Shown: positions 8,804 through 41,066 of the stretch, piece after piece
Numbering within the stretch: position 1 is the first letter of the stretch
Layout of the letters: every line of letters begins with the position of its first letter
NCBI GenBank assembly: GCA_964580065.1
Contig: CAZOJE010000001.1
Coordinates: 87,717-151,716, forward strand
Length of the DNA stretch: 64,000 nt
Direction: 5' to 3'
Origin: an uncultured Candidatus Saccharibacteria bacterium
Lineage (GTDB): Bacteria; Patescibacteriota; UBA1384; DTJR01
Program-made: the position numbers and the translations under genes
The notes under the pieces: generated by a model
What the model was told of the DNA's origin: nothing
The model's input: only the letters and a program-made list of their open reading frames with translations
Database searches by the model: none

Positions 8804-11564
8804 ACGATCCTTGAACAGCGTTTTCTAAACCGTCCAAAGTTGTGACGGTGATTTTGTAATAATATTTGGTTTTTCCTTGCAGGGCGTTCAAAGTAAGCGA
8901 ATGCGATGTTGTCTGTAAGCCACCGTATTTTTCGATATCGTAGCTGTCGGTGCTTGTGCCTACCTTGACAGATGAATCGGCCGCTTTGTCAGTGGTGAAT
9001 TTAATCGTTCCTCCATTTGAGGAAATGCCGGAAACCGATAAATTTTGAATTTGGACAGTCTCGCCACTGACAATTTTGACATTAATGGAACTTTCTCCGC
9101 TAACGCCGTTTCGATCAGTCAGCCGAGCGGTTAATTTGTATGTGCCGCTAGAAAAAGCGCTTGGATCAATTTCGGCTGAATAGGGAGAGTTAGTGGCAGT
9201 GGCGATTATTTTATCACCAAGAATATAAGTGACTGAATCAATGGGCTGTTCGGAATCTGTCGCTACAGCAACCCTTGTTTTCGTTTTAATAGTTGCGCCG
9301 TCCAACGGTTCACTAATGGTTATTTTTGGTGATTTAGTGTAGCTGGTGTCTTTCTCGTAATCTGGCAGGAGATAACCGTTGGCTTGTGCCCATGATCGAA
9401 TCGGCGCTTCCCAATTAGGATATTTCGCCCAATCATCGCCCCATTCATTATGAAGGTTAAAGAAATATTTTTCTTCAATTAATTCAGGCGGTGTCGAGCC
9501 GGTTGCGATCTTATTGTTTGCTTTATTTACTTTGAGAAGAACATTGATGTTATCGTGGTCGGTTGGCACTTGCCAAGGGGCAAAAATATCTTTTGTAAAC
9601 GATTTGGAATATTCACTTGGCAGCTTGCCGGAATATTTTTCGACGGTTAAATCTTTAATGGTATCTGGCCGCGTGAAGTCGGTTTCGTCAGCATATTTAG
9701 CCATAAATGTATGGAAAATGGGGGCGGCGACAACCGAACCGTCGGCGCCGTTGGACATTTTTGAGTTATCATTATTGCCAACCCAAACGGCTGTGGCAAT
9801 TTTAGTAGTGTAACCGACTGTCCAAGCGTCGTGAAATTCTTGGGTGGTACCAGTTTTGGCGGCAACATGATTATCGCCAAAATTTAAGGCATTTTGGCGA
9901 CCAAAAACCATACTTCTGGCATCGTCGTCGTCGAGGATATTACTGATTTCATAAGCAATTTCGGGAGCAATAGCGTTGTAAGCACTTGATTCTTTTTTAT
10001 ATTCATAAAGCGTTTTGCCCTTGCTGTCTTCAACTTTCAAAATTGGCGTTGGTTGATGAAAAACACCGTTATTACCGAAGGTGGCGAAAGCCCCAGCCAT
10101 TTCAATCGGCTTGACTTCACCGCCGCCGAGAACAAGCGATAGCCCATAGCGATCAGTTTGCGTTAGGGTAGTGATGCCAAGATCTTTAGCGGTTTTAAGA
10201 GCTTCAGGAATACCGACGAGTCCGAGGGTTTTAACGGCGGGAATATTCAGCGAGTTAGCTAAGGCGGTGCGCATTGTGACGGGGCCGTGCGTTGAACCAT
10301 CATAGTTTTGCGGTTTGTAACCGCTAAAGTCGGTTTGCAGGTCGAAGATATTGGTCCCGGGGGAATATCTCGAGCTTTTGAAAGCGGTGGCGTAAACGAT
10401 TGGCTTAAACGACGAACCGGGCTGGCGTAGGGAGTCAGTAACATTTACATTTCCATCGTTGCTGATGTCAAAATAGTCCTTGCTCCCAACCATGGCCAGT
10501 ATTTCGCCCGAAGTAGTATCAACCGAAACAAGTGCGGCGTTAGAAGCATTATATTTGGTCAGCTTTTTGGTGTTGTCAGTGATGGCTTGCTCGGCGGCGT
10601 TCTGCTTTTCCATATCTAGGGTAGTAGTCACTTTCAAGCCGCCACTATTAACCAGACGTTCACCGTACATTTCAACTAATTTTTCTTTGACGTACATGAC
10701 AAAATGTGGCGCTAAAATATTCTCGCGTTTCTGCTTAAAAGTAAGATTTTCCTTAGTCGGCGCTTCGGTCTTGGCCTTAGAGGCGTCTTCTTTGGAGACA
10801 TAATTTAAAGACGTCATTCGATCTAAAATATAATCCTTGCGAATGAAAAGAGCGTTAGTGTGAGTGCCGGTAGGCGAATAATAAGTTGGGGCGCGCGGAA
10901 TGGCCGCTAGTGTGGCGGTTTCTGACAAAGAAAGATCTTTGGCTGATTTGCCAAAATACGTTTGACTGGCTTGCTCAATACCATAAACATTTCCGCCATA
11001 AGGAATCTCGTTGAGGTACATAGCTAAAATATCTTCCTTACTATAAATTTGTTCAATTTCAATGGCGAGAATGAATTCTTTAATCTTTCGCGAGAAAGTT
11101 TTTTCGTTAGACAAGAGGGCGTTTTTAACAAACTGTTGAGTGATGGTAGAGCCGCCTTGAGATAAATTTAAATGCAAAACGTCAGAAATTGCCGCCCTTA
11201 ATATTCCTTTAAAATCAACGCCGCTATGAGAATAAAAATTGGCGTCTTCAGCGGCCACTGTTGCTTGTTTAACCTTATCGGGAATAGCGCTCTTGTCGAT
11301 AACAGTTCTTCTTTCTTCGCCGGTTTCGTAAAGCGTTGTTCCGTTTCGATCAAGAATCTTAGTTGATTCAGTAGCGTGAATTTTCGCTAATTTTGCGGGT
11401 GTGGGGAGGTCTTTTAAGTTCCACAAGAACATCAAAATAATAATGCCAAAAATACCCCCCAAGGTGTAAAGTATTACTTTCTTGGGAGTTAGACGTTTGT
11501 TGATTGCGAACCGTTTCAAACGTCTTTTTTGTTTTTTCAGATTAACAATTCCTGCAATTTTCAC
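8790..11564 (-). CDS. ponA: Class A penicillin-binding protein (PBP1A-type transglycosylase/transpeptidase) with C-terminal Ig/FN3-like extension
   Basis: N-terminal TM, GT51 motifs (…EDANFYSHSGVD…), transpeptidase SxxK/SxN/KTG-like region (…KTGTTQ…), ~170-aa beta-rich C-terminal tail. Confidence 0.8.
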   Translation of the reverse strand: MKIAGIVNLKKQKRRLKRFAINKRLTPKKVILYTLGGIFGIIILMFLWNLKDLPTPAKLAKIHATESTKILDRNGTTLYETGEERRTVIDKSAIPDKVKQATVAAEDANFYSHSGVDFKGILRAAISDVLHLNLSQGGSTITQQFVKNALLSNEKTFSRKIKEFILAIEIEQIYSKEDILAMYLNEIPYGGNVYGIEQASQTYFGKSAKDLSLSETATLAAIPRAPTYYSPTGTHTNALFIRKDYILDRMTSLNYVSKEDASKAKTEAPTKENLTFKQKRENILAPHFVMYVKEKLVEMYGERLVNSGGLKVTTTLDMEKQNAAEQAITDNTKKLTKYNASNAALVSVDTTSGEILAMVGSKDYFDISNDGNVNVTDSLRQPGSSFKPIVYATAFKSSRYSPGTNIFDLQTDFSGYKPQNYDGSTHGPVTMRTALANSLNIPAVKTLGLVGIPEALKTAKDLGITTLTQTDRYGLSLVLGGGEVKPIEMAGAFATFGNNGVFHQPTPILKVEDSKGKTLYEYKKESSAYNAIAPEIAYEISNILDDDDARSMVFGRQNALNFGDNHVAAKTGTTQEFHDAWTVGYTTKIATAVWVGNNDNSKMSNGADGSVVAAPIFHTFMAKYADETDFTRPDTIKDLTVEKYSGKLPSEYSKSFTKDIFAPWQVPTDHDNINVLLKVNKANNKIATGSTPPELIEEKYFFNLHNEWGDDWAKYPNWEAPIRSWAQANGYLLPDYEKDTSYTKSPKITISEPLDGATIKTKTRVAVATDSEQPIDSVTYILGDKIIATATNSPYSAEIDPSAFSSGTYKLTARLTDRNGVSGESSINVKIVSGETVQIQNLSVSGISSNGGTIKFTTDKAADSSVKVGTSTDSYDIEKYGGLQTTSHSLTLNALQGKTKYYYKITVTTLDGLENAVQGSFTTL

Positions 11565-28000: not shown

Positions 28001-30453
28001 TTGCGGGTTATGATACTTCGGCAAAAGCAAATGAGCTTGAAACGGGCCATTGGTATAATTACGCCCACCCATATTTTGAATGGTCGGGTGCGACTGACGC
28101 TGGTTCGGGCATTTACGGATATTATGTTTATTTTGGCACCAATGTTGATGCTAATCCTGTGGTTAGCGGCTCGCTCGTTACAAGCGCTAGTTATACTTAT
28201 TCAGGAACAGTAGCAAACGGCTCGACATATTATTTGCGTGTAAAGGCGGCCGATTTTGCCCTAAATACCTTTGCTGAAGCAACGACTGCATTTACCTATA
28301 AATACACTAATGATGCTCCAGGAGGCCCAACAATCTCTGGTTGGGACACTTCGGCTAAAGAAAATGCGATTTTAAGTGACGCGTGGTATGGCTATAATGC
28401 ACCGCATTTTGAATGGCTCGGCTCAACCTCTACTTCCGGCATTGCTGGCTATTATGTTTATTTTGGCTCAAACGGATCTGCCAATCCAGAAGTAGATGGG
28501 TCTTGGCAAACATCTACTAGTTACGATGTTTCTTCGCAAATGTCTGCTGGCTCAACTTATTATTTACGTATTCAATCAAAAGATAACGCTAACAATATTT
28601 CGTCTGCGATACAGTTTGTTTACAAATTTGACAACCAGTCGCCCAGTAGTAATCCGACAAGTTTCAAAGGATATAGCGATTCCCAAAAAACTGCTACTTT
28701 GACTTCGGATAACTGGTATAATATCGCTCAACCATATTTTGAATGGGACGGGGCGGTAGATTCCCATTCTGGCATTAAGGGCTATTGGGTTTATTTTGGT
28801 ACTGACGCCGACGCGGTCCCTTCAACGGCTGGAACTTTTCAAACGGCGGTCAGTAAAACTATTAGTCAAACGTTAACTTCTGGAACAACTTATTATTTCA
28901 TTCTCCAGTCTGAAAATAATGCTGGTAATAAAATCGCTCGTACCAGTTATTTCACATATAAGTTTGATAGTGCGGCGCCGACAATGGCAGAGCTGATAAA
29001 TGTTTCGCCGGTAGGTTGTTCGATTCAACCGACTTTTTCGATGAGCTGGGACGCGGCAGTTGATCCGGCGCCGGGTTCAGGATTTAAAACTTATCAATAT
29101 AAAATAGGGTCAACTGGAACAACGCACGACTTATCGGCTGTTTCCATTGACGTGCCTAGCTATCAAGACGGCGATAATGTCTTTTATCTGCGTGGCGTTG
29201 ATAATGCCGGCAATATTTCTAATTGGCAAACGGGTGTGTATTGTTCAACGGGTGTGGCGCATATTATTGACGGGCCAAACGTTAAGGCCGGACCGGCCTC
29301 GTTAACGGTTTCATGGACATCATCAAAACCGACCAAGGGCTCGGTGGTAGTTTATGAGGGAAATGAATACTTAACCGAACAAACTGGCGGGGAATTTGAC
29401 ATCAATCACAATGTCAAAGTGGTTGGTTTGGAACCGGAAAAATCATATCGCTATCAGTTGAAATGGTACGATGCTTCGGGAAATTCGGGCGTTTCTGATT
29501 GGTTTACGACTACTACGACAACAGCGCCGTCTATAGAGAATTTCAATGTTGCGGTTTTATCAACGGATAGAGCAATTTTTAGCTGGAGTACAAGTGAAAA
29601 TGCTACCTCAACCTTAACATATGGTAAAGATATTTTGGACACGACTATTGTTATCGCCGGAACAGCGACTTCATTCAGCCGAGAAATAACTGGCTTAACT
29701 GGCGGAACAACTTATCAGGTGAGAATAAATGCTCGAACAGTTGATGAGTTCCCGTTTTATTATGTTGCAAGCTTTTCAACTCCACCGCTACCAATTATTA
29801 CCGGATTAAAATTTGAACCTGTTAGCGGTCAGGCAGAAACAACGGTGAGCGTTACTTGGGCAACTAATGTCGAAACTACTTCGGCGCTTTTTTACGGGCC
29901 TAAAGGTGAAAACAAAAAAGAAATTTCTTCTATCGAAAAAACAAAAGATCATTCGATGGAAATTAAGGGATTATTAGATTCGACAAGCTATGAAATATAT
30001 GCCGTCGGCACAGACCAATACGGCAATATAGCCCAATCGGAAACTAATACATTTATGACGCCGAATGACACAAGACCACCGAAAATTTCGGCTATCTCTA
30101 CCGAAACATCTAACGTTGGCTTGGATAAGCAAGACCAAGCACAGATTGTCGTTAGCTGGAGAACAGACGAATTGTCAACAAGTTATGTTGAATATGACGA
30201 AGGATTATCAGGGGCAGAATACAAGAACAAAACTTCCGAAAATAAAGCTTTAACGAATAGTCATTTAGTTGTCGTAACCGCTTTAAAACCCGGCCAGCCC
30301 TATCACTTGCGCGTTTCTTCGGCCGATAAAGCGGGCAATTTAGTTTCAAGCGAGGATATAACAATAGTAACCGGAGACGTTCCGAAGTCGGTATTTAGTA
30401 TTCTTATCGGCACTTTGGAAAATATTTTTGGCTGGCTAAGTAGTGCTCTCTGA
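25048..30453 (+). CDS. Giant (1801-aa) cell-surface protein: N-terminal TM/signal, ~12 NHL-type beta-propeller repeats, LamG/ConA-like domain, multiple FN3-like domains, C-terminal TM anchor
   Basis: Repeats of the form Y(I/L)Y(V/I)(A/S)D…N(H/R)R(I/L)(I/V)KTK(I/F)DGTGW; …NVDIQ… LamG-like segment; repeated …YYVYFGT… FN3-like modules; C-terminal hydrophobic SVFSILIGTLENIFGWL. Confidence 0.65.
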   Translation: MNSDKPQDLNQIENKTLFFASRHAAFFRSLGRFVRKGARIGRIKVGPKSVLAVLLVVSIAYILAPFQSKAGYSFQANYDDGSLDAYNALGSRTAGTDTSLPSLNASGYNSTNSLSYSYDGTSTLKYATASNLPTDKGSVEMKFQKSAYGNNADQDKGSMYRPSGIAYDPATQYIYTADRQNHRIIKTKIDGTDWTTFGHYGTGTGEFSYPSDVAIDSSTGFIFVKDSCNGRVVKTKFDGTGWQTLTGFSTTECNTRNLGWYHENEHRIYYDSASEYIYSVSAAGSIVKSKIDGTGRTTLSSFGGHKMPADISGLTYDSASGYLFATTTNGHLVRTKEDGTDWSDVTGLNTTATGSIFYDPVSTYLYIANSNSGQIVKCYYDGSSWQTLGGFSFPTSVFVDTASGMMYVSNSSGHNIIKTADFSTTGWTAYGSYYNNLMKFGGGAGSGYDDNPGVSYDPSTGYLYIADNPRCRIIKTKMDGTGWQAYGTCGSGVGQFKYPSGVFYDSSSGYIYVGDRGNSRLVKTKIDGTGWTALNVSEGFMGIFYDSATDYIYYTDYNYLKKTKIDGTGSGSLAGFNQPINIFYDIASDPSHDGSGDFYIANKGANNIIKTKFNGTGWTAYGTNGSGTGQFSSPKGVSYDSSTGFLYVSDAGNYRMVKTKLDGSWTGWTAYGASGGGTGQFNSNKCLSYDSSSSNLYIYDQNNYRIVKISDSLDGTGWQTTSDYTAKEKILFSAQATDDSRLVYDVASRKLRFYLAYSNKAQFVETPTLNLTDGQWYTVKASFNKAAHTLSIDLDGTNQATATYDSDWGSLSFGTYFYIGARNASTTDRWDGMIDDINVDIQAVDTTDPANPTAAHVYSSSDLQTEYNSGGWGSDNDPYITFSGAADDDSGLKGYYIYFGTSNAADPVTTSGVLESGGAFHYQDHSGADDAVQTVQVPTDALADGSTYYLLIKTQDTDLNVSDNAAGLFTFKSDVTNPSANPSTFAGYDTSAKANELETGHWYNYAHPYFEWSGATDAGSGIYGYYVYFGTNVDANPVVSGSLVTSASYTYSGTVANGSTYYLRVKAADFALNTFAEATTAFTYKYTNDAPGGPTISGWDTSAKENAILSDAWYGYNAPHFEWLGSTSTSGIAGYYVYFGSNGSANPEVDGSWQTSTSYDVSSQMSAGSTYYLRIQSKDNANNISSAIQFVYKFDNQSPSSNPTSFKGYSDSQKTATLTSDNWYNIAQPYFEWDGAVDSHSGIKGYWVYFGTDADAVPSTAGTFQTAVSKTISQTLTSGTTYYFILQSENNAGNKIARTSYFTYKFDSAAPTMAELINVSPVGCSIQPTFSMSWDAAVDPAPGSGFKTYQYKIGSTGTTHDLSAVSIDVPSYQDGDNVFYLRGVDNAGNISNWQTGVYCSTGVAHIIDGPNVKAGPASLTVSWTSSKPTKGSVVVYEGNEYLTEQTGGEFDINHNVKVVGLEPEKSYRYQLKWYDASGNSGVSDWFTTTTTTAPSIENFNVAVLSTDRAIFSWSTSENATSTLTYGKDILDTTIVIAGTATSFSREITGLTGGTTYQVRINARTVDEFPFYYVASFSTPPLPIITGLKFEPVSGQAETTVSVTWATNVETTSALFYGPKGENKKEISSIEKTKDHSMEIKGLLDSTSYEIYAVGTDQYGNIAQSETNTFMTPNDTRPPKISAISTETSNVGLDKQDQAQIVVSWRTDELSTSYVEYDEGLSGAEYKNKTSENKALTNSHLVVVTALKPGQPYHLRVSSADKAGNLVSSEDITIVTGDVPKSVFSILIGTLENIFGWLSSAL

Positions 30454-30464
30454 AGCATATATTT

Positions 30465-31124
30465 ATGAGCGAATCATTAAATATAAATAAAAAAAGAAAT
30501 TTTTGGTTGATGCTGGCGCTAGTTTTAACGATTGGTATTGTGGCGGGCTGGTTTAGCAGAGGATGGGTGAAAGCGAGAGGAGAAGATATTGATTCATCAG
30601 TTTCGGAATCTGCCACAGCCGCTCCAGTCAACCCAATCGTCACTCCTAATTCAAACGAGACAGTAATTGTTTATGGTGGTGAATATGATAATTGGCAGAA
30701 GTTCACTAGCGCGGATTATCCTTTTACATTGAATTATCCTTCTGGCTGGATGCAGGAAGATAGCGGAACAGACGTAATAGAAATAACGACGCCAGACGAA
30801 AAATATCAATTAAAAATTGCTGTAAAAGCGAATTTGGCAAAGGAAAATTTTTCGCCCCTTGATCAGATCGTTAAGGGTGAATTGCAATCGGTTGGTTCGC
30901 TAACCATAGCACAAACGCCGATTGATAAGGAAGGGCTTTTTGTCGATGGTAAATCAAAACAGTATTTTTATGCCCGCGAGGGCAAGGTATTAAAGGGCGA
31001 GAAATATTTATTTTCTGCTACCTTTCTTCCGGTTGACTCAAAAAACATCAAGGATATTGATTTAGAAGCGTTCGATTATCGTGCTTTAGCGGAAAAAACC
31101 TTAAAATCAATCGAGCTTAAATAG
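30465..31124 (+). CDS. Hypothetical membrane-anchored extracytoplasmic protein
   Basis: N-terminal TM FWLMLALVLTIGIVAGWF, then soluble domain; no recognised motifs. Confidence 0.35.
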   Translation: MSESLNINKKRNFWLMLALVLTIGIVAGWFSRGWVKARGEDIDSSVSESATAAPVNPIVTPNSNETVIVYGGEYDNWQKFTSADYPFTLNYPSGWMQEDSGTDVIEITTPDEKYQLKIAVKANLAKENFSPLDQIVKGELQSVGSLTIAQTPIDKEGLFVDGKSKQYFYAREGKVLKGEKYLFSATFLPVDSKNIKDIDLEAFDYRALAEKTLKSIELK

Positions 31125-31126
31125 CG

Positions 31127-31810
31127 CTACTTAAAAAAATCCTGGTCGTAAAGCCAACACCAACCGTTGTCAGTTTGCACGAAATAGGCGGGCCTTTTTT
31201 GATTCTCCGTTTTATTACCGTCGACAAATTTATATATAAAATTAACGGTTAAGACATTATTATAATTTTTCGCCAAAAGCTTTGAATAGTATGAATTTGT
31301 TTGGGCAATTTCGTAAGACACGTCGGCAAGATTTAGGCCAAGCTTTTTGCTTTTAAGCTGCCAGCCGTTGGCTTGCGATAAATAATCCTCTTCCGATATT
31401 TTTGATTTTAATCCATCGTCAATAGATTCATAATTTTTTCTAAAAAGGTTGAGCTTGAGATTGCGGGCAAAATCTTGCAAAAATATCCCCGAACCGTGAT
31501 TGATTGAAATTTCAACATATTTTTTCCGGCCGACTTCAAAGTTTAAAGGTGCAAAAGACTGTTGATCGTTTATTTGAATAGTTTTATTTCGGCTGGGATT
31601 GTATTGGTTGATTGTGAAATTGCCTTTTTCGTCGGGTTTAATTGTCTGATTATTATAAACAAGTTCAATATTTTTACCAATGGCTTGGCCACTATTTGCG
31701 TCAATGATTTTTCCGCTCAAGGAATAGCTTTTAGTACAGAAAAAGTAAACGCATGCGGCACAAACTAAAATTAATTCGACTGTTAAGACAGATTTTGTAA
31801 TTTTTTCCAT
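31127..31810 (-). CDS. Hypothetical membrane protein (start chosen at internal Met to avoid 97-nt overlap)
   Basis: TM segment LTVELILVCAACVYFF; otherwise unrecognised. Confidence 0.3.
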   Translation of the reverse strand: MEKITKSVLTVELILVCAACVYFFCTKSYSLSGKIIDANSGQAIGKNIELVYNNQTIKPDEKGNFTINQYNPSRNKTIQINDQQSFAPLNFEVGRKKYVEISINHGSGIFLQDFARNLKLNLFRKNYESIDDGLKSKISEEDYLSQANGWQLKSKKLGLNLADVSYEIAQTNSYYSKLLAKNYNNVLTVNFIYKFVDGNKTENQKRPAYFVQTDNGWCWLYDQDFFK

Positions 31811-34047
31811 TTTCTCCTTGTGTAAATAACTACTCCTATAAGCGATAGCAAAATTATGGGCAAAACTATTCTTAACCAAATTGGTATGATGTAAATTTTA
31901 GCTCCGTAAATCGGCCCCGAATTTGCCTGATTTTTTTCAATGTTTAAAAGCAGCATGTGCGGTCCGTCGGCAATGGCATCGTCAAATTTAACATTCCATT
32001 TTCCTTGACTGTCGGAAACAGTCTTCTTTTCATATGATTTACTAAAGATCGTAATCGAAACATTTGCGTGAGATGCGGTCGTGCCGCTAACGATCAAGGG
32101 CTTGCCACTAAAAAGAACGATCAGCTTTTCAGGGTTTTTAATCTGGCGATTGTTAATTTTTAAAACAAGTGTATTTTTTTCAATTTTGTTTTTGAAATCA
32201 TTATCAACTTGGTTAATTTTATCCCTTATTTTCGCTAGATTTTCGGGATTTTGGGCGAATTGAGAAATAATATTTTCGGTTAATTCACTGATTGTTTGTG
32301 TGGCGGGACACTCTGCTGATGACGAAGTGGTTGGTGAACATTTTTCGCACGGCTGACAAGTGGCCGATAGGGGATCAACGTCATAAACAACAGCATAAAG
32401 ATCTTCCGGAGATAGTTTGTTGCCAGCATTATCAGCGACATTTATAGAAATAGCTACGGGATTATCGGCACTAAAAGGATTAACGGGCTTAATCTTGATT
32501 AAATAATCCGAAGCATCGCCGCTATAAGTAAAACTGTTTTGTCCAAGCAAAGTGTAGGTGTCTTCGCCGATAACTACTAAAAGGGTGTCTAAATTAACAC
32601 CGACTCCCGTATCGGAAACGTGAAAAGAAATTGTTTCATACGGACTAATATCGTTAGCCCCTTTTGGCGGGTTCCAGCGGTCAACGGTTGGTCCAATAGT
32701 ATCTTCGGTAAAAAAGCTCCAGTTATAATTAGCCATGACATTGGCTGGCGAAGTGTTATCGGCAACATTTTTGACCGTCACCAAAACCTGTTCGCTTTGG
32801 CTGAAATTTTCACTTGGATTGATGACGACGTCATAGGCCCAAATCAGCCCGTTATTAGTTAAACCGGTGCAAACGGTGTTGGTGTCTCCGCATATATAAG
32901 TATGAATTCCCTTTTGGCTAGTAACGTCAACGGAAATTGTGCTTGGGTTAATGCCAACGCCGTGAGTGCCATTTACGGCGACAGAAGTTTTTACATCTTT
33001 TATTTGGAAAGAGATGTTGGTGTCAATATTTTCCGCTGATCCGGTCGGCGAAGCGTTTGTTAAAGTAGGCGCGTCAACATCATTTTCGGTTGTAAAAGTG
33101 AAAGTGACCGGATCCATTGTATTCGGCCCGGCTGGGGATTGGTTTGCTGAAGCTTTATCTTGAGCGTCTTGAATTTTTACGGTGTAGCTTGTTTGGTAAT
33201 TCCAGTTGCGGTTGCCAATATCGGACGGGTTTATTGTCACAAGACAATCATTTGTCGCCCAAAGACCGCTGCAAGAAGTTGTAACCCAGCTATTGCGATT
33301 AACGTTTGCGCCGCCAGATTCTTGAATAAAAATATTAGATGTTGAAATATTAACGCCGGTTTCGTCGTCCTTCAAATGAAAAGTGATATTACTTTCAACC
33401 GGAACATTTTGGGCACCGTCGGCATAATTTAAAGAATCGACATAAGGTTTGTCTGTGTCGGGAAGTAATTGCCAATTAGAATTTTCCACTGAAGACAATA
33501 TATCTTGAGAGTCGCCAGAGCGAACAATATTGCTGTCGATAGTTGAGCCCGATGTGAAATCAATGGTAGTTGAAAGAGAACTGGCCTTTTGGGCAAGCAC
33601 AGTGAAACTAATTGTGCCAAAAACACCTGCTCCGGCATAATTAGCGCCGCTTGTGTTGGCGCCAGTCAACCTAATTACTCCACCGGCGACGGTGTTGCCG
33701 GAATCAGGGTAACTTTCGTATAAAGTGCCGGCGGAAATTTGGGTTCCTGTAACGGCCGGCTTGCTGTCGTTGACTGTAAGGTAATTTGTATCGTAGTTGA
33801 TGATAATGTTGGCGCTTTTAGTGTCGACTGCGCCAGTGGAAATCATAATTTTAGCGTCAAAAGTTTGCCCGACGTAAAATTTATTAAGTGTGCCATTACC
33901 GTCGCCTGAACAATCGCCACCGGTAACGGGGGAGACACAAAGCTCAAAATATGGTGCTGTAGGTGAGGCGGCGCTTGCATATAACGGCATTGCTAAATTA
34001 GCGACGAGCAAAAAAGTTTGCAAAAATATCAAAAATTTAGTTTTCAT
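31783..34047 (-). CDS. Large secreted, C-terminally membrane-anchored surface protein with Ig-like repeats
   Basis: Signal peptide (MKTKFLIFLQTFLLVANLAMPLYASA), beta-rich repeats, C-terminal TM (IVLPIILLSLIGVVIYT) + basic tail. Confidence 0.45.
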   Translation of the reverse strand: MKTKFLIFLQTFLLVANLAMPLYASAASPTAPYFELCVSPVTGGDCSGDGNGTLNKFYVGQTFDAKIMISTGAVDTKSANIIINYDTNYLTVNDSKPAVTGTQISAGTLYESYPDSGNTVAGGVIRLTGANTSGANYAGAGVFGTISFTVLAQKASSLSTTIDFTSGSTIDSNIVRSGDSQDILSSVENSNWQLLPDTDKPYVDSLNYADGAQNVPVESNITFHLKDDETGVNISTSNIFIQESGGANVNRNSWVTTSCSGLWATNDCLVTINPSDIGNRNWNYQTSYTVKIQDAQDKASANQSPAGPNTMDPVTFTFTTENDVDAPTLTNASPTGSAENIDTNISFQIKDVKTSVAVNGTHGVGINPSTISVDVTSQKGIHTYICGDTNTVCTGLTNNGLIWAYDVVINPSENFSQSEQVLVTVKNVADNTSPANVMANYNWSFFTEDTIGPTVDRWNPPKGANDISPYETISFHVSDTGVGVNLDTLLVVIGEDTYTLLGQNSFTYSGDASDYLIKIKPVNPFSADNPVAISINVADNAGNKLSPEDLYAVVYDVDPLSATCQPCEKCSPTTSSSAECPATQTISELTENIISQFAQNPENLAKIRDKINQVDNDFKNKIEKNTLVLKINNRQIKNPEKLIVLFSGKPLIVSGTTASHANVSITIFSKSYEKKTVSDSQGKWNVKFDDAIADGPHMLLLNIEKNQANSGPIYGAKIYIIPIWLRIVLPIILLSLIGVVIYTRRKWKKLQNLS

Positions 34048-34762
34048 TAAAGCCGTCCCCAGTTTTATCCAAATTTTCGATTAAAATCCCTAAATCGACT
34101 GCGTTAACAATGCCATCTTTGTTGACGTCTTGCTTTTCGACAGCGCTTGAAGCGTCTAGCTTTTCGATTTCGATCGCTAAATCAATCGAATTTATAATAT
34201 CGTCACCCCTCTTCCAAGCGTCCTGACTGTCTAAAATATTAACGTCACCAGCAAGCAGATACTCGGTGTCGGCCGAAGAAAAATCGATAAAATTATTGCC
34301 GTTTACGATACTTACGTTTGTTTTCCTTTTGTTGAGATGGGAATATCCTTTGGCATAAATATCATAAGTTCCTTCCGTGATATTGGTGAGCGGTTCGGGA
34401 TTATCATGTAAACCGTTTTGATCTGTATCGAATTGCTGGCTGTAAACTACGCTGCTGGTGCCAGCATTTTTTATTTCAATTACGACGTGGCTGGAGTAGT
34501 TATTGCTTGAAGGGCTTATTTTCTCGGGTATGGCTTTAAAGGTAAAAGAGCTGCCGCCGACATGCACGGAAATTCCTAGTGACCCGTCATCACCTTTGGC
34601 AAGATTTTGATCACAAAAAACACCTAGAGCAACGCCCAAAACCACTAATACAAACGTAATTTTATATTTGCGTGCCAATTTTTCCTTGTATAAATTATAC
34701 CAGAGATTTTTTATGTGTTGTTGGCGATTGGGTCTGTTGCGCGAATATAACTTGTAGCTCAT
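34037..34762 (-). CDS. Membrane-anchored protein with C-terminal dockerin-type Ca-binding repeats
   Basis: Two D-x-N-x-D-G-x-(I/V)-N-x-x-D-like repeats (DVNILDSQDAWKRGDDIINSIDL… and DVNKDGIVNAVDLGILIENL). Confidence 0.5.
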   Translation of the reverse strand: MSYKLYSRNRPNRQQHIKNLWYNLYKEKLARKYKITFVLVVLGVALGVFCDQNLAKGDDGSLGISVHVGGSSFTFKAIPEKISPSSNNYSSHVVIEIKNAGTSSVVYSQQFDTDQNGLHDNPEPLTNITEGTYDIYAKGYSHLNKRKTNVSIVNGNNFIDFSSADTEYLLAGDVNILDSQDAWKRGDDIINSIDLAIEIEKLDASSAVEKQDVNKDGIVNAVDLGILIENLDKTGDGFNEN

Positions 34763-34789
34763 TTAGATTCCTTTTTATCTTGCAGAAGT

Positions 34790-34836
34790 CCAATATGTAT
34801 CGAAACTTATGCGTCTTTCTTCTCTTTAAAAACAAA
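34790..34836 (-). terminator. Rho-independent terminator (minus strand) of the GC-rich two-gene unit
   Basis: Minus-strand reading: GCCCCTGCATGCG…CGTGTGCGGGGGC hairpin followed by TTTTGTTTTT. Confidence 0.5.
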
Positions 34837-34937
34837 AGCCCCCGCACACGTTGGCCAGTGTTGGCTAACGCATGCAGGGGCTTGGTCTTTCGGTTGCAGG
34901 GGATCGGTAACGGCAAAATCCCTGGGAGTTGGTGCTA

Positions 34938-35534
34938 TTACTTGCGACCGAGGATTATCCCCGTATCGCTGCACCACAATTTCCCTACGGATCGGGCCAC
35001 GATAGTGGCTCGAGAGGAGCGGCAGAAGCGGCACGGCACCAGCAACCCCTTTTCGCTATGCAGAAGCGAGTTGGGGTCTGTTGCGGTTACATACTGGAGA
35101 CCACTCTGCTCGAACTCAAGCCACGGCAGCTCGCACGTTAGGAACGGAAAGAGCAGGTGCTCGTATCCACTCTCTTCAACGAGCTGCTTGAGCTCCTCGT
35201 AGTTTTCTACTACTGGGAGGTTGAGCTTCAGGTCAACAAGCCTCCCATTCTCGTCAGTAACTACTTTGAGTTTTCCGTAGTCACCGTCTACCGGGATGTC
35301 GAGCTTCCCGATAGCCACCGGTCTCTTTACAAGGCCTTCCGGCCATGCGGCGAGGCCTTTGCGTGAACGCCATGCGTGGTCAGAGGGGTGAGGAACGAAA
35401 GCGTCTGGCGGTATACTATCACCGCCAAAGGAGTAGCGGATATTTGCCATGATCTTGGCGATCCGATCGGGATCGCCACTCTTCCCGAAGTCGACCCCAA
35501 CTTCTCCTTCCCAGATAATCTTGATCCCGGCCAT
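34938..35534 (-). CDS. Hypothetical protein, compositionally foreign (GC-rich) ORF A
   Basis: 198-aa ORF with G/C-ending codons throughout; no recognisable motif; second gene of a minus-strand pair. Confidence 0.5.
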   Translation of the reverse strand: MAGIKIIWEGEVGVDFGKSGDPDRIAKIMANIRYSFGGDSIPPDAFVPHPSDHAWRSRKGLAAWPEGLVKRPVAIGKLDIPVDGDYGKLKVVTDENGRLVDLKLNLPVVENYEELKQLVEESGYEHLLFPFLTCELPWLEFEQSGLQYVTATDPNSLLHSEKGLLVPCRFCRSSRATIVARSVGKLWCSDTGIILGRK

Positions 35535-35613
35535 ACAAACGTCTCCTTTCTCTTTCCGTCGTTTTTGCAGCCACTGCCGGTCAAACAGGGAACGCTTTCA
35601 TGCGCCTAAGGCA

Positions 35614-36141
35614 TCAAACTCTTCGCGATACTTGTGGGGAGCCAGGCAGGGCGCCGTTGCCGCCCCAGACGCCGGTGGCAAAGTCGAGTCCGAACCCGAA
35701 GTAGACCGGGCCGAGGCCGAGGCAGAACGGGCGGAAGCGGCCGTCGAGCCGCCAGAGCTCTTCGTTGCTCTGGCGCAAGGCGACTAACCACCTCATGCCC
35801 AGCTCGTAGAGCCCGTTGCGGATCTGCTCCGGCTCGTTCTCCGGCAGCGCCAGTGAGGCGATCTCGACCGGCCAGCTGAATCCAATGCCCGAGGCCTCCT
35901 GCTTCTGCCGGCCTTGCGCCGTGTTGAATTCCTGGTGATCCCAGAGAATCGGGAGGGTTGCTGCCTCAACGACTCCGGTCTGACCGCCGTTCCACAACCC
36001 CATCAGCTCTTCCGGCCACTTGGCGATGTCGGGATTGCTTTCGGGCAGTAACCCGACCGCCTGCTTGGGCGTAAGACCGTAATCGATCTTGACGCCCTTC
36101 AGCTGGTAAGCCGGCTGGGGTAAAACCAATCGTGCGCCCAT
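35614..36141 (-). CDS. Hypothetical protein, compositionally foreign (GC-rich) ORF B
   Basis: 175-aa ORF, same strand and composition as ORF A, 79-nt spacer; no recognisable motif. Confidence 0.5.
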   Translation of the reverse strand: MGARLVLPQPAYQLKGVKIDYGLTPKQAVGLLPESNPDIAKWPEELMGLWNGGQTGVVEAATLPILWDHQEFNTAQGRQKQEASGIGFSWPVEIASLALPENEPEQIRNGLYELGMRWLVALRQSNEELWRLDGRFRPFCLGLGPVYFGFGLDFATGVWGGNGALPGSPQVSRRV

Positions 36142-36182
36142 GTGAACCGTCTCTCTTTCGCGAAGCTTTTTTGGGGGCTTTG

Positions 36183-36233
36183 TTGGTAACTGCTTTCAGC
36201 GCACAAATTATTTTCGCTGAAAGCAGTTACCAA
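36183..36233. promoter_or_regulatory. 19-bp perfect inverted repeat (13-nt loop) in the 5' leader of ORF B
   Basis: TTGGTAACTGCTTTCAGCG-cacaaattatttt-CGCTGAAAGCAGTTACCAA; no flanking U-tract on either strand, so not a classic terminator. Confidence 0.4.
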
Positions 36234-36267
36234 TCTATAAGTATTGTAAATGTTCGAATAACAGGAG

Positions 36268-36296
36268 AATGTAGTAAATTGCAGCCTGTTTGTCAA
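36268..36296 (-). promoter_or_regulatory. Candidate sigma70-like promoter for ORF B/ORF A (minus strand)
   Basis: Minus-strand TTGACA-17 nt-TACATT. Confidence 0.3.
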
Positions 36297-36805
36297 CGAT
36301 TGTATTTAATGACAAGCATCTTCGCAATAGGCCGGTAGCTTTTGCTCGTTTCAAATGATGTACTAAAAATGATAAGAAACCCTTTGAACGCTAGACTTGT
36401 TTGAACGGCACGGCAAAATTTGAGAACAATTTAGCGAATTTGACGAAAATAAATTATAAAAGTATTGGATAACCGAATTTATTAAAAACGAAATTCGGAC
36501 TTATTTTGAAAAGAAAAACTCCGAAACAACAAATACATCATAGCGTGTTTTCTTCTGTTGGAGCTTCTACCTTCGCTCTTCGAGCTACGGATAGACAGGC
36601 GGGCGGAGCAAGGCGGCGCCCTCGCAAACAAAAAATTTTTTTATTTATGGCCGTGGCATCTCGAGGGTGGAACTAGAGATCTTTTTGTTTAAAAAACGGC
36701 CGAAAATTTGAAGTTTGAATTGGGAAGGAGGAAGAAAAGGTTGAAAAAAGAAAATAATTGGTAAATAATGAAATCAAACAGGACAATTATTGAGGAAGGA
36801 AAAAT

Positions 36806-38830
36806 ATGCCAGTTGAGTCAGGCCCGGGACCAAAATTTCTAGAACAAAAATACTATTTGCACAATAGCGACGAAGTTAAATCTGCGAAAAAACGGAGCGA
36901 AGTTCGAGATGGCGAGGAAATCAGACAAAATCCAGATGAGCTAATTCAAAATTATTTGGATCGCTTCAAAGAGATTACAGACCGAACCGATCCGGAAAAA
37001 CGCCAGCGAGGCATTGAAGCACTAAAAAAAGTTTTACATGATAAATTTATTGTCAAACCGGAAGAGATTCCAGAAAGCTACTGGGAATCGCAAAAACGAA
37101 TTATCCGCGAACGGGGCCAAGGCGCTGACTTGGAGCAAGCTGATTGGAATGAACTCAAAAGACAAAACACTGAAGCAATAATTGCAGATCAAAACTCATC
37201 ACTTGATAACTGGATTGATTATCTAACATCACCCGATGCAACCTATCCTGACTGGCTAAAATATTTTGCTTTTCGCAGCATTACAACAATGGGCGGCTTT
37301 GACAAAGAGCGATATGTTTTTTCCAAACGCTCGACTGGTACAACCAAGCCATTTCCAGATATCAATCGTGAGGCCTTGGCATATGTGCTTGATGCAGTTG
37401 AAAAAGGTCAAAGCCAGAAGTATTTTGATTCAAAAGAGAGTGTTCGACAGCTAAAGAATCAAATCAAAAAATTAAAAGGCGAACAAAGAAGCGGCGCAAC
37501 AATCCAAGAAGTGGAGATCTCAAATCTACAGGATAAAATATCTGAGGAGGAGAAGAGGCAAAAAGAGATTGTATTTGGCGCTTTGGCAGAAGAAAGCTCC
37601 GATGAGGAGCTATCGACGCTTCTTCGCGATCAAGATTTTGCCAAACTCTACGCTTGGGCAATTGAAAAAGTTACTCCGGCTTCAGTTGAACAAATCACAG
37701 TAACCGAAGGCAAGTGGGTTAAATACGACCAAGGATCCGACCATATGCCTTTAGTTCAGTCGCTACAGGGACATGGAACCGGCTGGTGCACCGCCGGAGA
37801 ATCGACAGCCAAAACCCAACTTCGCGGGGGAGACTTTTATGTGTACTACTCGCACGATCAACAAGGCCAGCCGACAATTCCGCGTGCCGCTATTCGAATG
37901 GAAGAAGGAAAAATCGCTGAAGTTCGCGGTATTGCTGCAGAACAAAACCTCGACCCATACATTGCTGATGTCGTCCAGGACAAATTACAGGAATTTCCCG
38001 ACGGCAAAGCTTATGAAAAGAAAAATTCTAATATGAAACAATTGACGGAAATCGAGAATAAAATGAGGTCCGGACAAGAACTTTCTAAAGCAGAGTTGGT
38101 TTTTCTTTATGAAATTGATCAACCGATCGAGGGTTTTGGTTATCAGCGCGATCCGAGAATCGAAGAACTTCGTAGCCAGAGAAATGCAACGGAAGACGCA
38201 CCAATAGTATTGGATTGCCAACCGGAAGAGATTGCTCGGAGTGCTGATCAAATACAAGAAAATACCAAATCCTACATTGGACCATTATTTCCGGGAATTT
38301 TTAAGCTACAAAATATTGAAAATATCTACACCTCATTTCCTGAAGGTAAAGTTCGGAAAAGCGAACTGGAGATTGGTGGCAAAACTAAGGTTGAATTAGT
38401 CGCGGAGTTAAAGGCTAGAGGTATAAAAATTTATGATTATGCTCAGGATATGTTAGATAGTCCAGAATTTGCGACTCAATCAAATCCTGAACAAATTGAT
38501 TTAGTCCGCCTAAAGGTTCGAGATTTTGGTTTCCCAAATGGCGCTACGACCGAACAAATTTATGCCAAAGCAGAAGAATTTGGACTTGAACTCTGTCCGG
38601 CGGAAGTCGGACCGCATCAAAGATTAAAAGATTTAGATCAACCGCTAGCTGCCTGGTACAGAATTGCTATGAAGCAAATTTCAGGCCGGAACGGCCTCCC
38701 TAGCGTCTTCGACTTGGGACACAATGACGTCCGCTTGTGGCTCAACTACAGTTGGGCGGTACCTGGCAACGAGTGTGACGCTGGCCTTGTGCTCATGTTC
38801 CGTCTTCGCAAGTTTCCTCAAGAATCTTGA
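36806..38830 (+). CDS. Large (674-aa) cytoplasmic hypothetical protein, no recognisable domains; coiled-coil middle, GC-richer 3' end
   Basis: Good SD (GGAAGGA), no signal peptide/TM; Cys-containing segment …HGTGWCTAGES…; 3'-terminal ~200 nt noticeably GC-richer than neighbours. Confidence 0.55.
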   Translation: MPVESGPGPKFLEQKYYLHNSDEVKSAKKRSEVRDGEEIRQNPDELIQNYLDRFKEITDRTDPEKRQRGIEALKKVLHDKFIVKPEEIPESYWESQKRIIRERGQGADLEQADWNELKRQNTEAIIADQNSSLDNWIDYLTSPDATYPDWLKYFAFRSITTMGGFDKERYVFSKRSTGTTKPFPDINREALAYVLDAVEKGQSQKYFDSKESVRQLKNQIKKLKGEQRSGATIQEVEISNLQDKISEEEKRQKEIVFGALAEESSDEELSTLLRDQDFAKLYAWAIEKVTPASVEQITVTEGKWVKYDQGSDHMPLVQSLQGHGTGWCTAGESTAKTQLRGGDFYVYYSHDQQGQPTIPRAAIRMEEGKIAEVRGIAAEQNLDPYIADVVQDKLQEFPDGKAYEKKNSNMKQLTEIENKMRSGQELSKAELVFLYEIDQPIEGFGYQRDPRIEELRSQRNATEDAPIVLDCQPEEIARSADQIQENTKSYIGPLFPGIFKLQNIENIYTSFPEGKVRKSELEIGGKTKVELVAELKARGIKIYDYAQDMLDSPEFATQSNPEQIDLVRLKVRDFGFPNGATTEQIYAKAEEFGLELCPAEVGPHQRLKDLDQPLAAWYRIAMKQISGRNGLPSVFDLGHNDVRLWLNYSWAVPGNECDAGLVLMFRLRKFPQES

Positions 38831-38922
38831 CTTCTAATACACAGAAGAGCGTGAGCCGAACCAAATTGGCGGTTGGCTCGGCGAGCATTTCAACTTTCAA
38901 AAATTTTTCAAAAAGTATGAAT

Positions 38923-38998
38923 TGGTCGGGCCAGCGAGACTCGAACTCGCGACCTCCGGACCCCCAGCCCGGCGCACTACCAACTGTGCTATAGCCCG
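38923..38998 (-). tRNA. tRNA-Pro (anticodon GGG)
   Basis: Minus strand cloverleaf: acceptor CGGGCUA/UGGCCCG, anticodon arm CCGGG-CUGGGGG-UCCGG, T-loop GUUCGAGUC, 3' CCA. Confidence 0.75.
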
Positions 38999-39174
38999 TT
39001 TACGCATTAAACTAAGCGGCCTTGGTGCTGGGGGACTGTCCGTCTTGCGCTAAGTGGGTGAACGCACTCTTGAACCAAAGTTTAAGAAAATGTTGTTCTC
39101 CCAATAATATTTGTGTTCAGACAAATGCGCACCAGCAGATCAAGGCCACCCTTAATTTAGCACAATTTTTATTC

Positions 39175-39780
39175 TTATGAAATGAGACCGATGAGGAATT
39201 GGCTGATTTTGCCAACAAACGTGAGCAAAAAATTATTAGCCGTAGATGAAAAAATTAAAACGGCAATCAAAATAACCGGCCCAAATCTTTCAAGGGTGAA
39301 AGCGCTTTCGGCTGGTAAAATAAGATACCAGATTTTACTGCCGTCTAAAGGGGGAATAGGCAACAGATTAAAAACGCCCAAAGTTATGTTGATTTGAATT
39401 AAAAGATACAAAATTGTTCTTAAAATTGACGTATCAGGGAAGAACCTCATTACTAGGGCGGCTACAACAGCAAAAACAAAATTGGCTAACGGCCCAGCCA
39501 TCGAAGAAAGAAAATAATCCCTTGTGGGGTTTTTAAAATTGCGCGGGTCAATCATCACTGGTTTGGCCCAGCCAAAAACCGGCGCTCCAGTAATGGCTAA
39601 AACAAGGGGAACAATCACCGTGCCATACATATCAATGTGAGCGAGGGGGTTTAATGTCATGCGCCCTTCGACTTTGGCGGTAGCGTCGCCTAATTTATAA
39701 GAAGCCCAAGCGTGAGCCGCTTCATGAGCTGCCAAACAGATAAAAAATACTATTATTTGGATTAATAAGGCGATAATCAT
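39175..39780 (-). CDS. M50-family (site-2 protease-like) membrane zinc metalloprotease
   Basis: HEAAH in first TM region (…AAHEAAHAWAS…), multiple TM helices. Confidence 0.65.
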   Translation of the reverse strand: MIIALLIQIIVFFICLAAHEAAHAWASYKLGDATAKVEGRMTLNPLAHIDMYGTVIVPLVLAITGAPVFGWAKPVMIDPRNFKNPTRDYFLSSMAGPLANFVFAVVAALVMRFFPDTSILRTILYLLIQINITLGVFNLLPIPPLDGSKIWYLILPAESAFTLERFGPVILIAVLIFSSTANNFLLTFVGKISQFLIGLIS

Positions 39781-39834
39781 CTTGATTTATCTTATTTAAT
39801 TTGCTAATCTACTTTAGTAATTAACATTATAAAT

Positions 39835-40044
39835 ATGGCAAAAGTAGAACTTAAACACAAGTCGAGCAATTCCTGCGCAATTTGCGGCAAAGCAGATATG
39901 TCTATTTTGAATAGGCCCCACTCTTTGCACAAAACAAAAAGGATTGTTAAACCAAATTTCCAAAAAAGATGGGGAGTTGAGCTTTGTCAAAACTGTTTCA
40001 GGACAGTCAAAAAGCACAACATCGAGCTAACGGGTGATATTTAA
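39835..40044 (+). CDS. rpmB: 50S ribosomal protein L28
   Basis: …CAICGK…NRPHSLHKTKRIVKPNFQKRW… matches L28 core (NRSHALNATKRRF.PNL…W). Confidence 0.65.
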   Translation: MAKVELKHKSSNSCAICGKADMSILNRPHSLHKTKRIVKPNFQKRWGVELCQNCFRTVKKHNIELTGDI

Positions 40045-40373
40045 GCGTCTTTTTTCGATTCAGAAACGAGTTTGCTATAACAATCGGCGCATAAGGCAAC
40101 GCGGTCTTTTGGCGGAGGGGCAAGCATGCCACCGTCTTTATCGCATACGCCGCAGTGAATATAGAACATACCATTTTCACGCAATTTGTTGGCTTTTTCG
40201 CGGCACCGATTACATTTTTGCGGTTTTTTAGCAAATCCTTTTTTCTTGTAATAGAGCTGTTCTCGAGCGGTCCAAACAAATTCCTGCTGGCAGGTTTTGC
40301 AGAAAATCTTAATGTCTTGTAGTGGTTCCATTTTATTGATTAAATCTAAGAACAATTTTATTAGAGTTTGCAC
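40041..40373 (-). CDS. Small protein with four CxxC pairs (zinc-ribbon)
   Basis: CKTCQQ…CNRCREK…CGVCDKD…CADCYSK. Confidence 0.4.
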   Translation of the reverse strand: MQTLIKLFLDLINKMEPLQDIKIFCKTCQQEFVWTAREQLYYKKKGFAKKPQKCNRCREKANKLRENGMFYIHCGVCDKDGGMLAPPPKDRVALCADCYSKLVSESKKDA

Positions 40374-41066
40374 CGGAGGTCAAATATGGAGCTGTTTTTT
40401 GAAAAAGTTTTGGAAAAATTAACCGGCTCCCAACCTGTTTTAATTGCTGGCCCGTCTGGAAAGCGAGAGGGTATTGCTAAACTCGTTATAGAAGAGCTAA
40501 AAATTTCCCGATCTGATTTAGCAATTTTTTCTTCAGATCAACCGGTGGCGCAACTGCGCGAAATTATTGGCAATCTTTCAGTCAAGCCGCACAGCAGCCA
40601 ATATCGTCTGCTTATAATAAAAGATGCTGATAAAATTAATTCTCAATCAGCCAATACACTGCTAAAAAACCTCGAAGAACCACCTTTTTATCAAAGAACA
40701 ATCCTTTTTTGCAATTCATTTTCGGCGGTTTTAGCCACAATAAAATCGAGATGTAAAAAGCTTGTTTTGCCCGATAAACATCTTGCTAACGAAGGCGAAG
40801 ATTTAACAAGTTTTTTTGATTCTCCCAGTTTTATTGATTTTTCAAAATATATTGAGAAAAAAGAGGGGGCAGAGCTTGGCGAAATAGTGGCTAACACCCT
40901 TGAAGTTATGAGATTAAAAGGGTTAAATAAGACTGAAGAACATTTATATAAAGATTTAGCTTCAGCTTTTATAAAAATTTCAAGCTCAAACATCAATCCA
41001 AAAATAAAATTGGAAGAGGTGTACCTAAAGTTTTTACAAAAAAATGCCAGAAATAATTTACCCTAG
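40368..41066 (+). CDS. holB: DNA polymerase III delta' subunit-like (short form)
   Basis: P-loop-like LIAGPSGKREG, SANTLLKNLEEPP (delta' sensor motif), only 232 aa. Confidence 0.6.
   Translation: MHRRSNMELFFEKVLEKLTGSQPVLIAGPSGKREGIAKLVIEELKISRSDLAIFSSDQPVAQLREIIGNLSVKPHSSQYRLLIIKDADKINSQSANTLLKNLEEPPFYQRTILFCNSFSAVLATIKSRCKKLVLPDKHLANEGEDLTSFFDSPSFIDFSKYIEKKEGAELGEIVANTLEVMRLKGLNKTEEHLYKDLASAFIKISSSNINPKIKLEEVYLKFLQKNARNNLP

Follow-up and report, generated by a model that had tools for sequence, protein, structure and literature searches.

We analysed a 64-kb stretch of contig CAZOJE010000001.1 (hereafter the window), which holds an island of GC-rich DNA with two genes, here called A and B, that we assign as variable-protein genes of diversity-generating retroelements (DGRs). 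Positions 34840 to 36150 have a GC content of 58.9%, compared with a mean of 41.0% (sd 2.5%, maximum 47.9%) for same-size windows elsewhere (z = 7.0), and this is the sole island of such strength across the 64 kb. An original prediction, made from the sequence of the window, had described a GC-rich stretch in AT-richer surroundings carrying two co-directional open reading frames (ORFs) of 175 and 198 aa on the minus strand, and both parts of this description hold. Gene A (35614–36141, minus strand, 175 aa) has a GC content of 63.6%, with values of 0.65, 0.46 and 0.80 at codon positions 1, 2 and 3. Gene B (34938–35534, minus strand, 198 aa) has a GC content of 55.6%, with corresponding values of 0.61, 0.41 and 0.64. 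Because this codon-position periodicity is of the coding type, A and B represent real coding sequence rather than chance ORFs; conserved homologs were found for both, in agreement with their earlier designation as real genes. The promoter, leader, A, B and terminator form one operon, which is the self-contained transcription unit that had been proposed.

The earlier remark that neither protein has an assignable motif agrees with our searches, because Pfam, PHROGs, PADLOC and NCBIfam gave no match for A or B (E ≤ 1). Profiles of the A and B families compared with PDB sequences also returned nothing meaningful. A protein search found 18 homologs of A, all unannotated. The closest of them are named Candidatus Berkelbacteria, which supports the Patescibacteria-like host suggested beforehand. 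In the alignment of this A-type family, the first ~130 residues are well conserved, and the last ~45 form a comb of invariant and hypervariable columns with the pattern W..G.FRPF.L.L.P..F.F.L..A...W....AL.GAPQV. Gene A is 64–76% identical to A-type targets that have an adjacent template repeat (TR), Avd and reverse transcriptase (RT) and are thus demonstrably diversified, and we designate its product a single-domain variable protein with a C-type-lectin fold that carries a variable region (VR).

The anatomy of these relatives is clearest in locus L004. Downstream of the A-type homolog P0011, the 3′ end of the gene recurs as a 129-nt direct repeat, and bAvd and RVT_1 reverse transcriptase genes follow. 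The VR (8400–8528) and the TR (8901–9029) differ at 21 positions, and 21/21 mismatches fall on TR adenines. This layout is the defining anatomy of a DGR. Loci L013–L017 have the same order of target, TR, Avd and RT, sometimes with two tandem A-type targets. In the A family set, the TRs all end in CCCCGCAACTATC and the VRs all end in CCCCGCAAGTA, which represents the distinction between the initiation of mutagenic homing (IMH) element of the template, IMH*, and the IMH-like element of the target. Among 18 aligned members of the 90%-identity clusters P0012 (50 members) and P0014 (3 members), the proteins are near-identical outside the VR and differ mainly at the comb positions within it; therefore, the DGR is active in this sister lineage. 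One member of the P0012 cluster, P0041, has an Asn-rich VR (DADNDWNDNNALVGAPQLSLFFCL) that reads like a TR, including a TR-type end; it is either a hybrid of VR and TR produced in assembly or a recently homed copy that is still unmutated.

In these relatives, the VR consists of the C-terminal ~45 residues and is rewritten by a cassette of TR, Avd and RT located ~370 nt downstream. The TR transcript undergoes reverse transcription with misincorporation at adenines, and the resulting cDNA replaces the VR. The VR is marked as the recipient by its IMH-like end CGCAAGTA, and the TR as the donor by CGCAACTATC. The varied residues would be displayed by the C-type-lectin fold and form a surface for ligand binding, as they do in Mtd and TvpA.

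Gene B was connected to the same system through more distant relatives. A word-indexed search gave only two near-identical relatives of B, and an exhaustive HMMER search found 12 distant homologs of 107–220 aa with E values from 9e-20 to 9e-4, including P0024 and P0055, for which the TR is proven. The N-terminal part of the B-type alignment is conserved, and the C-terminus is comb-like (NSL.R...G.L.VP...C.P..R.L........W...TG.L.GCK). P0024, P0055 and P0056 are identical over ~133 residues and differ only in the C-terminal VR, so that B, like A, is homologous to demonstrably diversified proteins. In L034/L035, the B-type gene precedes a hairpin, a terminator and the TR-upstream sequence that also occurs in the A-type loci. 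Next comes a 126-nt TR, and 12/12 mismatches fall on its adenines; the contigs end with the C-terminal part of Avd. No TR was found within the contigs of the further B-type loci L025–L033. When the B and A families were compared with hhalign, they aligned over the VR region with a probability of 67% (E = 5e-5). A third, C-type target was seen in L009, L012 and L022. The same DGR lineage thus uses A-, B- and C-type targets, each with its own TR, and the alignments place A and B in two distantly related Patescibacteria (Berkelbacteria-like) families of DGR variable proteins.

The VR of A (35627–35757, minus strand) was located by in-register alignment with the VR/TR set and from the hypervariable columns in alignments A1 and A4, and it is the sole part of the window matched by foreign TRs. 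It is adenine-poor (12 A in 135 nt), as are active VRs. It ends in the IMH-like sequence CCCCACAAGTATCG at 35626–35639, with a G-to-A change relative to the family sequence CCCCGCAAGTA. This change is unique among the compared VRs and hits the otherwise invariant CCCCGCAAG, which reads CCCCACAAGTA in A of the window. After the stop codon, the family has a hairpin (consensus TTCYGGGGATY...RATCCCYTGGAA) and then a terminator. Comparison of the 3′ flanks indicated that A of the window lacks both. B starts 79 nt after A, and the spacer between them (35535–35613, minus strand) carries the AAGGAG ribosome-binding site of B. The Shine-Dalgarno sequence of A itself is weakened (GAGAGACGG, compared with GGGGAGGTG in relatives).

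The presumed VR of B comprises the C-terminal ~45 aa (34941–35075, minus strand), as judged from alignment to the B-family VR pattern NSLxRxxxGxLxVPxxxCxPxxRxL...WxxxTGxLxGCK, and a motif scan placed its IMH-like end CGCAAGTA at 34939–34946. RNAfold of the 3′ flanks predicted a weak hairpin with a 5-bp core (CAGGGAT...ATCCCCTG) after the stop codon of B at 34896–34926 (minus strand). It sits where the family has its post-VR inverted repeat, as compared with L004, L005, L009, L013, L025, L028, L030 and L034.

Taken together, we read the island as one operon encoding two DGR variable proteins of two distantly related families, in which the pair is probably orphaned and the high GC content is a family-wide trait, and we give this reading a probability of roughly 0.85. 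Several points weigh against it. For this genome, the search covered 64 kb of a 155.9-kb contig and gave no TR, Avd or RT, and the absence of VR variants rests on consensus assemblies of few samples. B of the window is only ~30–40% identical to B-type members with a proven TR, and its AF2 model, computed from three near-identical sequences, has a pLDDT of 34 and is unusable. In addition, the reading leaves the cause of the GC-richness unexplained.

The machinery was sought in the window directly. With the RT and Avd of L004 as tblastn queries, no match was obtained in the 64 kb, whereas relatives at 53–74% identity were detected in other loci. Blastn with the VRs and the foreign TR regions found nothing else in the window. 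No remnant of a DGR RNA or of the TR-upstream sequence was present in the 64 kb. Since the search of the window for RT, Avd and TR was negative, we classify the island as DGR-target genes only and do not file it as a DGR.

The pair is probably orphaned and frozen, and not currently diversifying. It has this appearance because the window contains no machinery, because A has lost its hairpin and terminator and has a changed IMH-like element, and because neither VR varies. The protein of A (P0001) forms a single-member cluster, with one sequence on 4 contigs from at least 3 samples. The VR of B is identical in the window and in L008 despite 48 single-nucleotide polymorphisms over the 4.8 kb that they share (~1% difference in the flanks). 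In these assembly-level data, no population-level hypervariability confined to the VR was therefore seen for A or B. In this genome, A would have lost the post-VR hairpin and terminator and acquired an altered IMH-like motif, and B would have been fused directly behind it.

An alternative that we consider possible, with clearly lower odds, is that both genes are remote targets and that a DGR elsewhere in the genome, with an A-type and a B-type TR, still acts in trans to diversify both VRs. An IMH-like 3′ end is retained in each VR (CACAAGTA and CGCAAGTA), B keeps its post-stop hairpin, and the VR of A is as poor in adenine as active VRs. Non-adjacent and remote DGR targets are documented (PMC5758913), and the visible part of the genome is limited to 64 kb. 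However, apart from the last ~8 nt, the two VRs are not homologous at the nucleotide level, so that each would require a TR of its own. The missing post-VR hairpin of A and its G-to-A change in the otherwise invariant CCCCGCAAG also count against this alternative, and no VR variation was observed across the 4 contigs for A or between two strains ~1% apart for B. From this sequence evidence, we favor orphaned, frozen targets over remote targets that are still active.

Possible signs of decay were also observed in relatives. In L009 (6694–7729) and L012 (944–1964), which come from two assemblies, the DGR RT of this Berkelbacteria lineage is split into two overlapping ORFs of 198 and 172 aa and may be frameshifted and inactive. 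The TR at these loci matches the C-type target, and the neighboring A-type gene has no matching TR. L010 is an A-type locus without a DGR. At 2632–2830 it nevertheless keeps the sequence (GGAGAGTAGGTTGGAATGCTTTTGGCTA) that stands ahead of the TR where a DGR is present. A TR-Avd-RT cassette seems to have been deleted here, leaving this scar, so that loss of the DGR while the target persists appears to be recurrent.

The content of the locus varies among strains. Contigs L022–L024, from other samples, carry this B gene at 99% identity, but a C-type target takes the place of A upstream of it. Homology of these loci to the window starts exactly at 35555, which is 21 nt upstream of the ATG of B, and the L008 contig starts at the same position. 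A recombination breakpoint thus lies at 35555 in the A–B spacer, and because L022–L024 and L008 share this junction, target genes have apparently been exchanged there as cassettes. Also in L022–L024, B is truncated at window position 35103 and joined to position 28518. This is either an allele with a ~6.6-kb deletion or a mis-join that recurs in three assemblies. Within B, a 78-nt in-frame indel polymorphism (~35216–35294; 26 aa, PVDGD...LKLNL) lies between the short repeats CCGGTAG and CCAGTAG. This segment is missing in L008 (protein P0019), and contigs L002 and L003 end there.

Transcription of the operon would start from a sigma-70-type promoter, TTGACA-17-TACATT (36268–36296, minus strand). 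A consensus scan scored this candidate, which had been picked out in the original prediction, at 10/12. The sequence of the -35 region, TTGACAAACAG..., is kept upstream of A-type genes in L004, L009, L012, L013–L017 and L019 and upstream of the B-type gene in L030. The promoter is followed by a box in the 5′ untranslated region (5′-UTR), GAACATTTACAATACTT / GAACATTYACAATACTT (36239–36255, minus strand), which is nearly identical in L005, L009, L010, L012, L013–L017 and L019. The box precedes a hairpin with a 19-bp perfect stem and a 13-nt loop (36183–36233, minus strand), and the perfect inverted repeat that had been reported here is found at 36183–36201 / 36215–36233. Across 8 loci, one B-type gene among them, compensatory changes occur in 9/20 pairs of this hairpin, and 91% of cells are paired, compared with 26–46% when the pairing partners are slid; the observed values were reached by 0/500 shuffles. 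G-U pairs are present on the sense strand, which suggests that the inverted repeat acts as an RNA structure. It is not an intrinsic terminator because no U-tract follows. The box and a hairpin of 18–20 bp were found upstream of both A- and B-type target genes (L005, L009, L010, L012, L013–L017, L019 and L030), and they have no match in Rfam. This covariation-supported hairpin, common to two types of targets, may regulate the expression of the variable proteins.

At the other end of the operon, an intrinsic terminator with a 17-bp G+C-rich stem followed by UUUUGUUUUU lies at 34828–34883 (minus strand). The terminator called in the original prediction is therefore real, with its stem and U-tract, although the position given for it (34790–34836) is ~45 nt too low. 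The terminators that follow A- and B-type genes at other loci are homologous to it by position and, in part, by sequence.

The unusual composition is not peculiar to the window. A-type genes have a GC content of 61–65% (77–85% at third codon positions, GC3) in surroundings of 38–46%; the sole exception is the gene of L018, which has a GC3 of 0.54 and is partly ameliorated. B-type genes have 53–61% in surroundings of 37–43%, and the C-type fragment in L022 has 60%. The adjacent Avd and RT genes are at ~30–35%. High GC is confined to the coding sequences; the promoter and leader that accompany the gene are AT-rich. Family members down to ~60% identity have the GC-rich trait in common. At four-fold degenerate sites, the GC-rich A homologs show 51–77% identity (random expectation 0.29–0.36), and the RT genes of L004 and L015 show 40% (random expectation 0.24). 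Based on this comparison of A homologs and RT genes, the contrast in composition between targets and RT/Avd predates the divergence of the elements. A recent import that has had no time to ameliorate is disfavored, because the contrast is present in elements whose RTs have diverged to ~60% identity. The comparison of sequences thus indicates that high GC is a long-standing property of the target-gene families and not a trace of recent import.

These results bear on the view taken in the original prediction that the island is a GC-rich cassette imported from a much higher-GC donor, perhaps the host of an episymbiont, with a toxin/immunity or anti-phage pair as the candidate function. We regard this as very improbable. 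In its favor are the atypical GC content (z = 7), the strain-variable locus with alternative upstream genes in L003 and L022–L024, a tRNA-Pro gene 2.8 kb away, and the lack of any function assigned by domain libraries. However, no homolog from a GC-rich genome was obtained in searches of 5.8 billion proteins and 1.84 billion representatives or in genome, metagenome and viral scans, in which exhaustive HMMER was applied to the B family only and not to the A family. Viral contigs contained no A-type relative. The homologs with flanking sequence all lie in Patescibacteria-type, housekeeping-gene contexts of 37–46% GC. The high GC content also stops where the coding sequences stop, and conservation extends from the gene to its AT-rich leader. 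The GC-rich trait recurs in members diverged to ~60% identity, beside AT-rich Avd and RT genes. These observations do not support a high-GC donor. The proposed toxin/immunity or anti-phage function is not supported by the searches given above, in which PADLOC, like the other libraries, returned no match; both families are instead proven DGR targets in relatives.

We also considered whether DGR mutagenesis had depleted adenine throughout the gene and so produced the composition. This was rejected, because the coding strand and the third codon positions contain about as much A as T and about as much G as C. We find it conceivable, although rather doubtful, that the GC-richness is tied to DGR biology instead of ancestry. 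The A, B and C targets have a GC3 of 65–85% from start codon to terminator, in genomes of 37–43% GC. This pattern would fit codon-level selection, for example for slow translation of a hypervariable fold or against A/T-rich sequence that resembles a template. Another process that it would fit is GC-biased conversion, driven by recombination at loci where target cassettes are exchanged. If the GC-richness is tied to DGR biology, the 5′-UTR hairpin could be a dedicated regulator of variable-protein expression.

The continuity check that had been called for was done at the assembly level: an independent assembly, L001, is 100% identical across window positions 32400–40486, and another, L008, is 99% identical across 30407–35555, so that both junctions of the island are spanned. 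The abrupt shift in composition and the contig breaks inside or beside the cassette (L002, L003 and L008) might suggest a chimeric assembly, a fragment of a contaminant or a structured RNA of high GC content in place of protein genes. This is hardly credible, because independent assemblies from other samples cross both edges, the codon-position periodicity and conserved protein families favor coding, Rfam gives no match, and the contig breaks coincide with real polymorphisms, namely the 78-nt indel in B and the cassette swap at 35555. For structured RNA, a scan with Rfam at gathering thresholds gave tRNAs only, and matches within 34500–36800 were at chance level and fell on the leader hairpin.

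Several observations concern the neighborhood. A tRNA-Pro(GGG) gene is located at 38923–38998, 2.8 kb upstream of the cassette, and an uncharacterized 674-aa ORF without a Pfam domain (36806–38830) lies in between. L003 (positions 1–224; SRR9674389) differs from the window above 36772, where another small gene replaces the start of this ORF. Because L003 differs upstream of the A promoter, the region from tRNA-Pro to the cassette is strain-variable. In L005 (~1–120), a tRNA gene, apparently tRNA-Pro as read by eye, ends ~250 nt upstream of an A-type promoter. On the downstream side, the gene next to the cassette (34037–34762, minus strand) encodes a 241-aa protein in which a type I dockerin domain was recognized (E = 3e-5); it is followed by the gene for a 754-aa putative surface protein (31783–34047, minus strand), the L008 homolog of which carries a Big_5 domain. 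Both genes have normal host GC, and their synteny is conserved in L008.

Much of this system is established: DGRs, variable proteins with the C-type-lectin (CLec) fold, IMH and inverted-repeat elements and non-adjacent targets have been described (PMC5758913), as has a DGR clade restricted to the candidate phyla radiation (CPR) (PMC8144416). Surveys state that targets remote from the RT are missed when the RT is off-contig (PMC8144416). In AT-rich Patescibacteria genomes, small coding sequences with a sharply raised GC content may serve as a flag for DGR targets even in such cases. Two families without a Pfam or NCBIfam model are now assigned as DGR variable proteins of Patescibacteria. The locus may also serve as a worked example of targets that outlive their retroelement or are served in trans, and of different target types that are apparently recombined as cassettes at a precise junction.

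The closest described counterparts of A and B are Mtd of Bordetella phage BPP-1, TvpA of Treponema denticola and the targets of the CPR-restricted DGR clade 2 (Roux et al. 2021, PMC8144416). In contrast to these, A and B have no match to the Pfam CLec, FGE-sulfatase or DUF1566 models, are only 175–198 aa long, and have no extra domain and no obvious signal peptide. The window has no TR, Avd or RT and combines two target families in one operon, and the coding sequences are 15–25 percentage points richer in GC than the host DNA and the RT and Avd genes of their own elements. The remote targets of the T. denticola DGR, of which seven are known (Wu et al. 2018, PMC5758913), resemble A and B in being variable-protein genes with an IMH-like end far from any RT. 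However, the T. denticola targets share one TR-homologous VR, whereas the two VRs of the window are unrelated in sequence, A lacks a downstream hairpin, no variation was seen, and no TR is known for this genome. With acquired islets, such as toxin-antitoxin (TA) or defense cassettes near tRNA genes, the island shares the atypical GC content, the strain-variable content and the nearby tRNA-Pro. Unlike such islets, it has no integrase, repeats, or defense or TA domains, its anomaly is limited to the coding sequences, and its composition characterizes the gene family as a whole within AT-rich Patescibacteria genomes. The island is thus a known system with new content: it adds two variable-protein families that had no annotation, placed here in tandem and probably orphaned. 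Smaller new points that can be tested are the GC anomaly seen throughout the families, the swapping of cassettes and the conservation of the leader hairpin.

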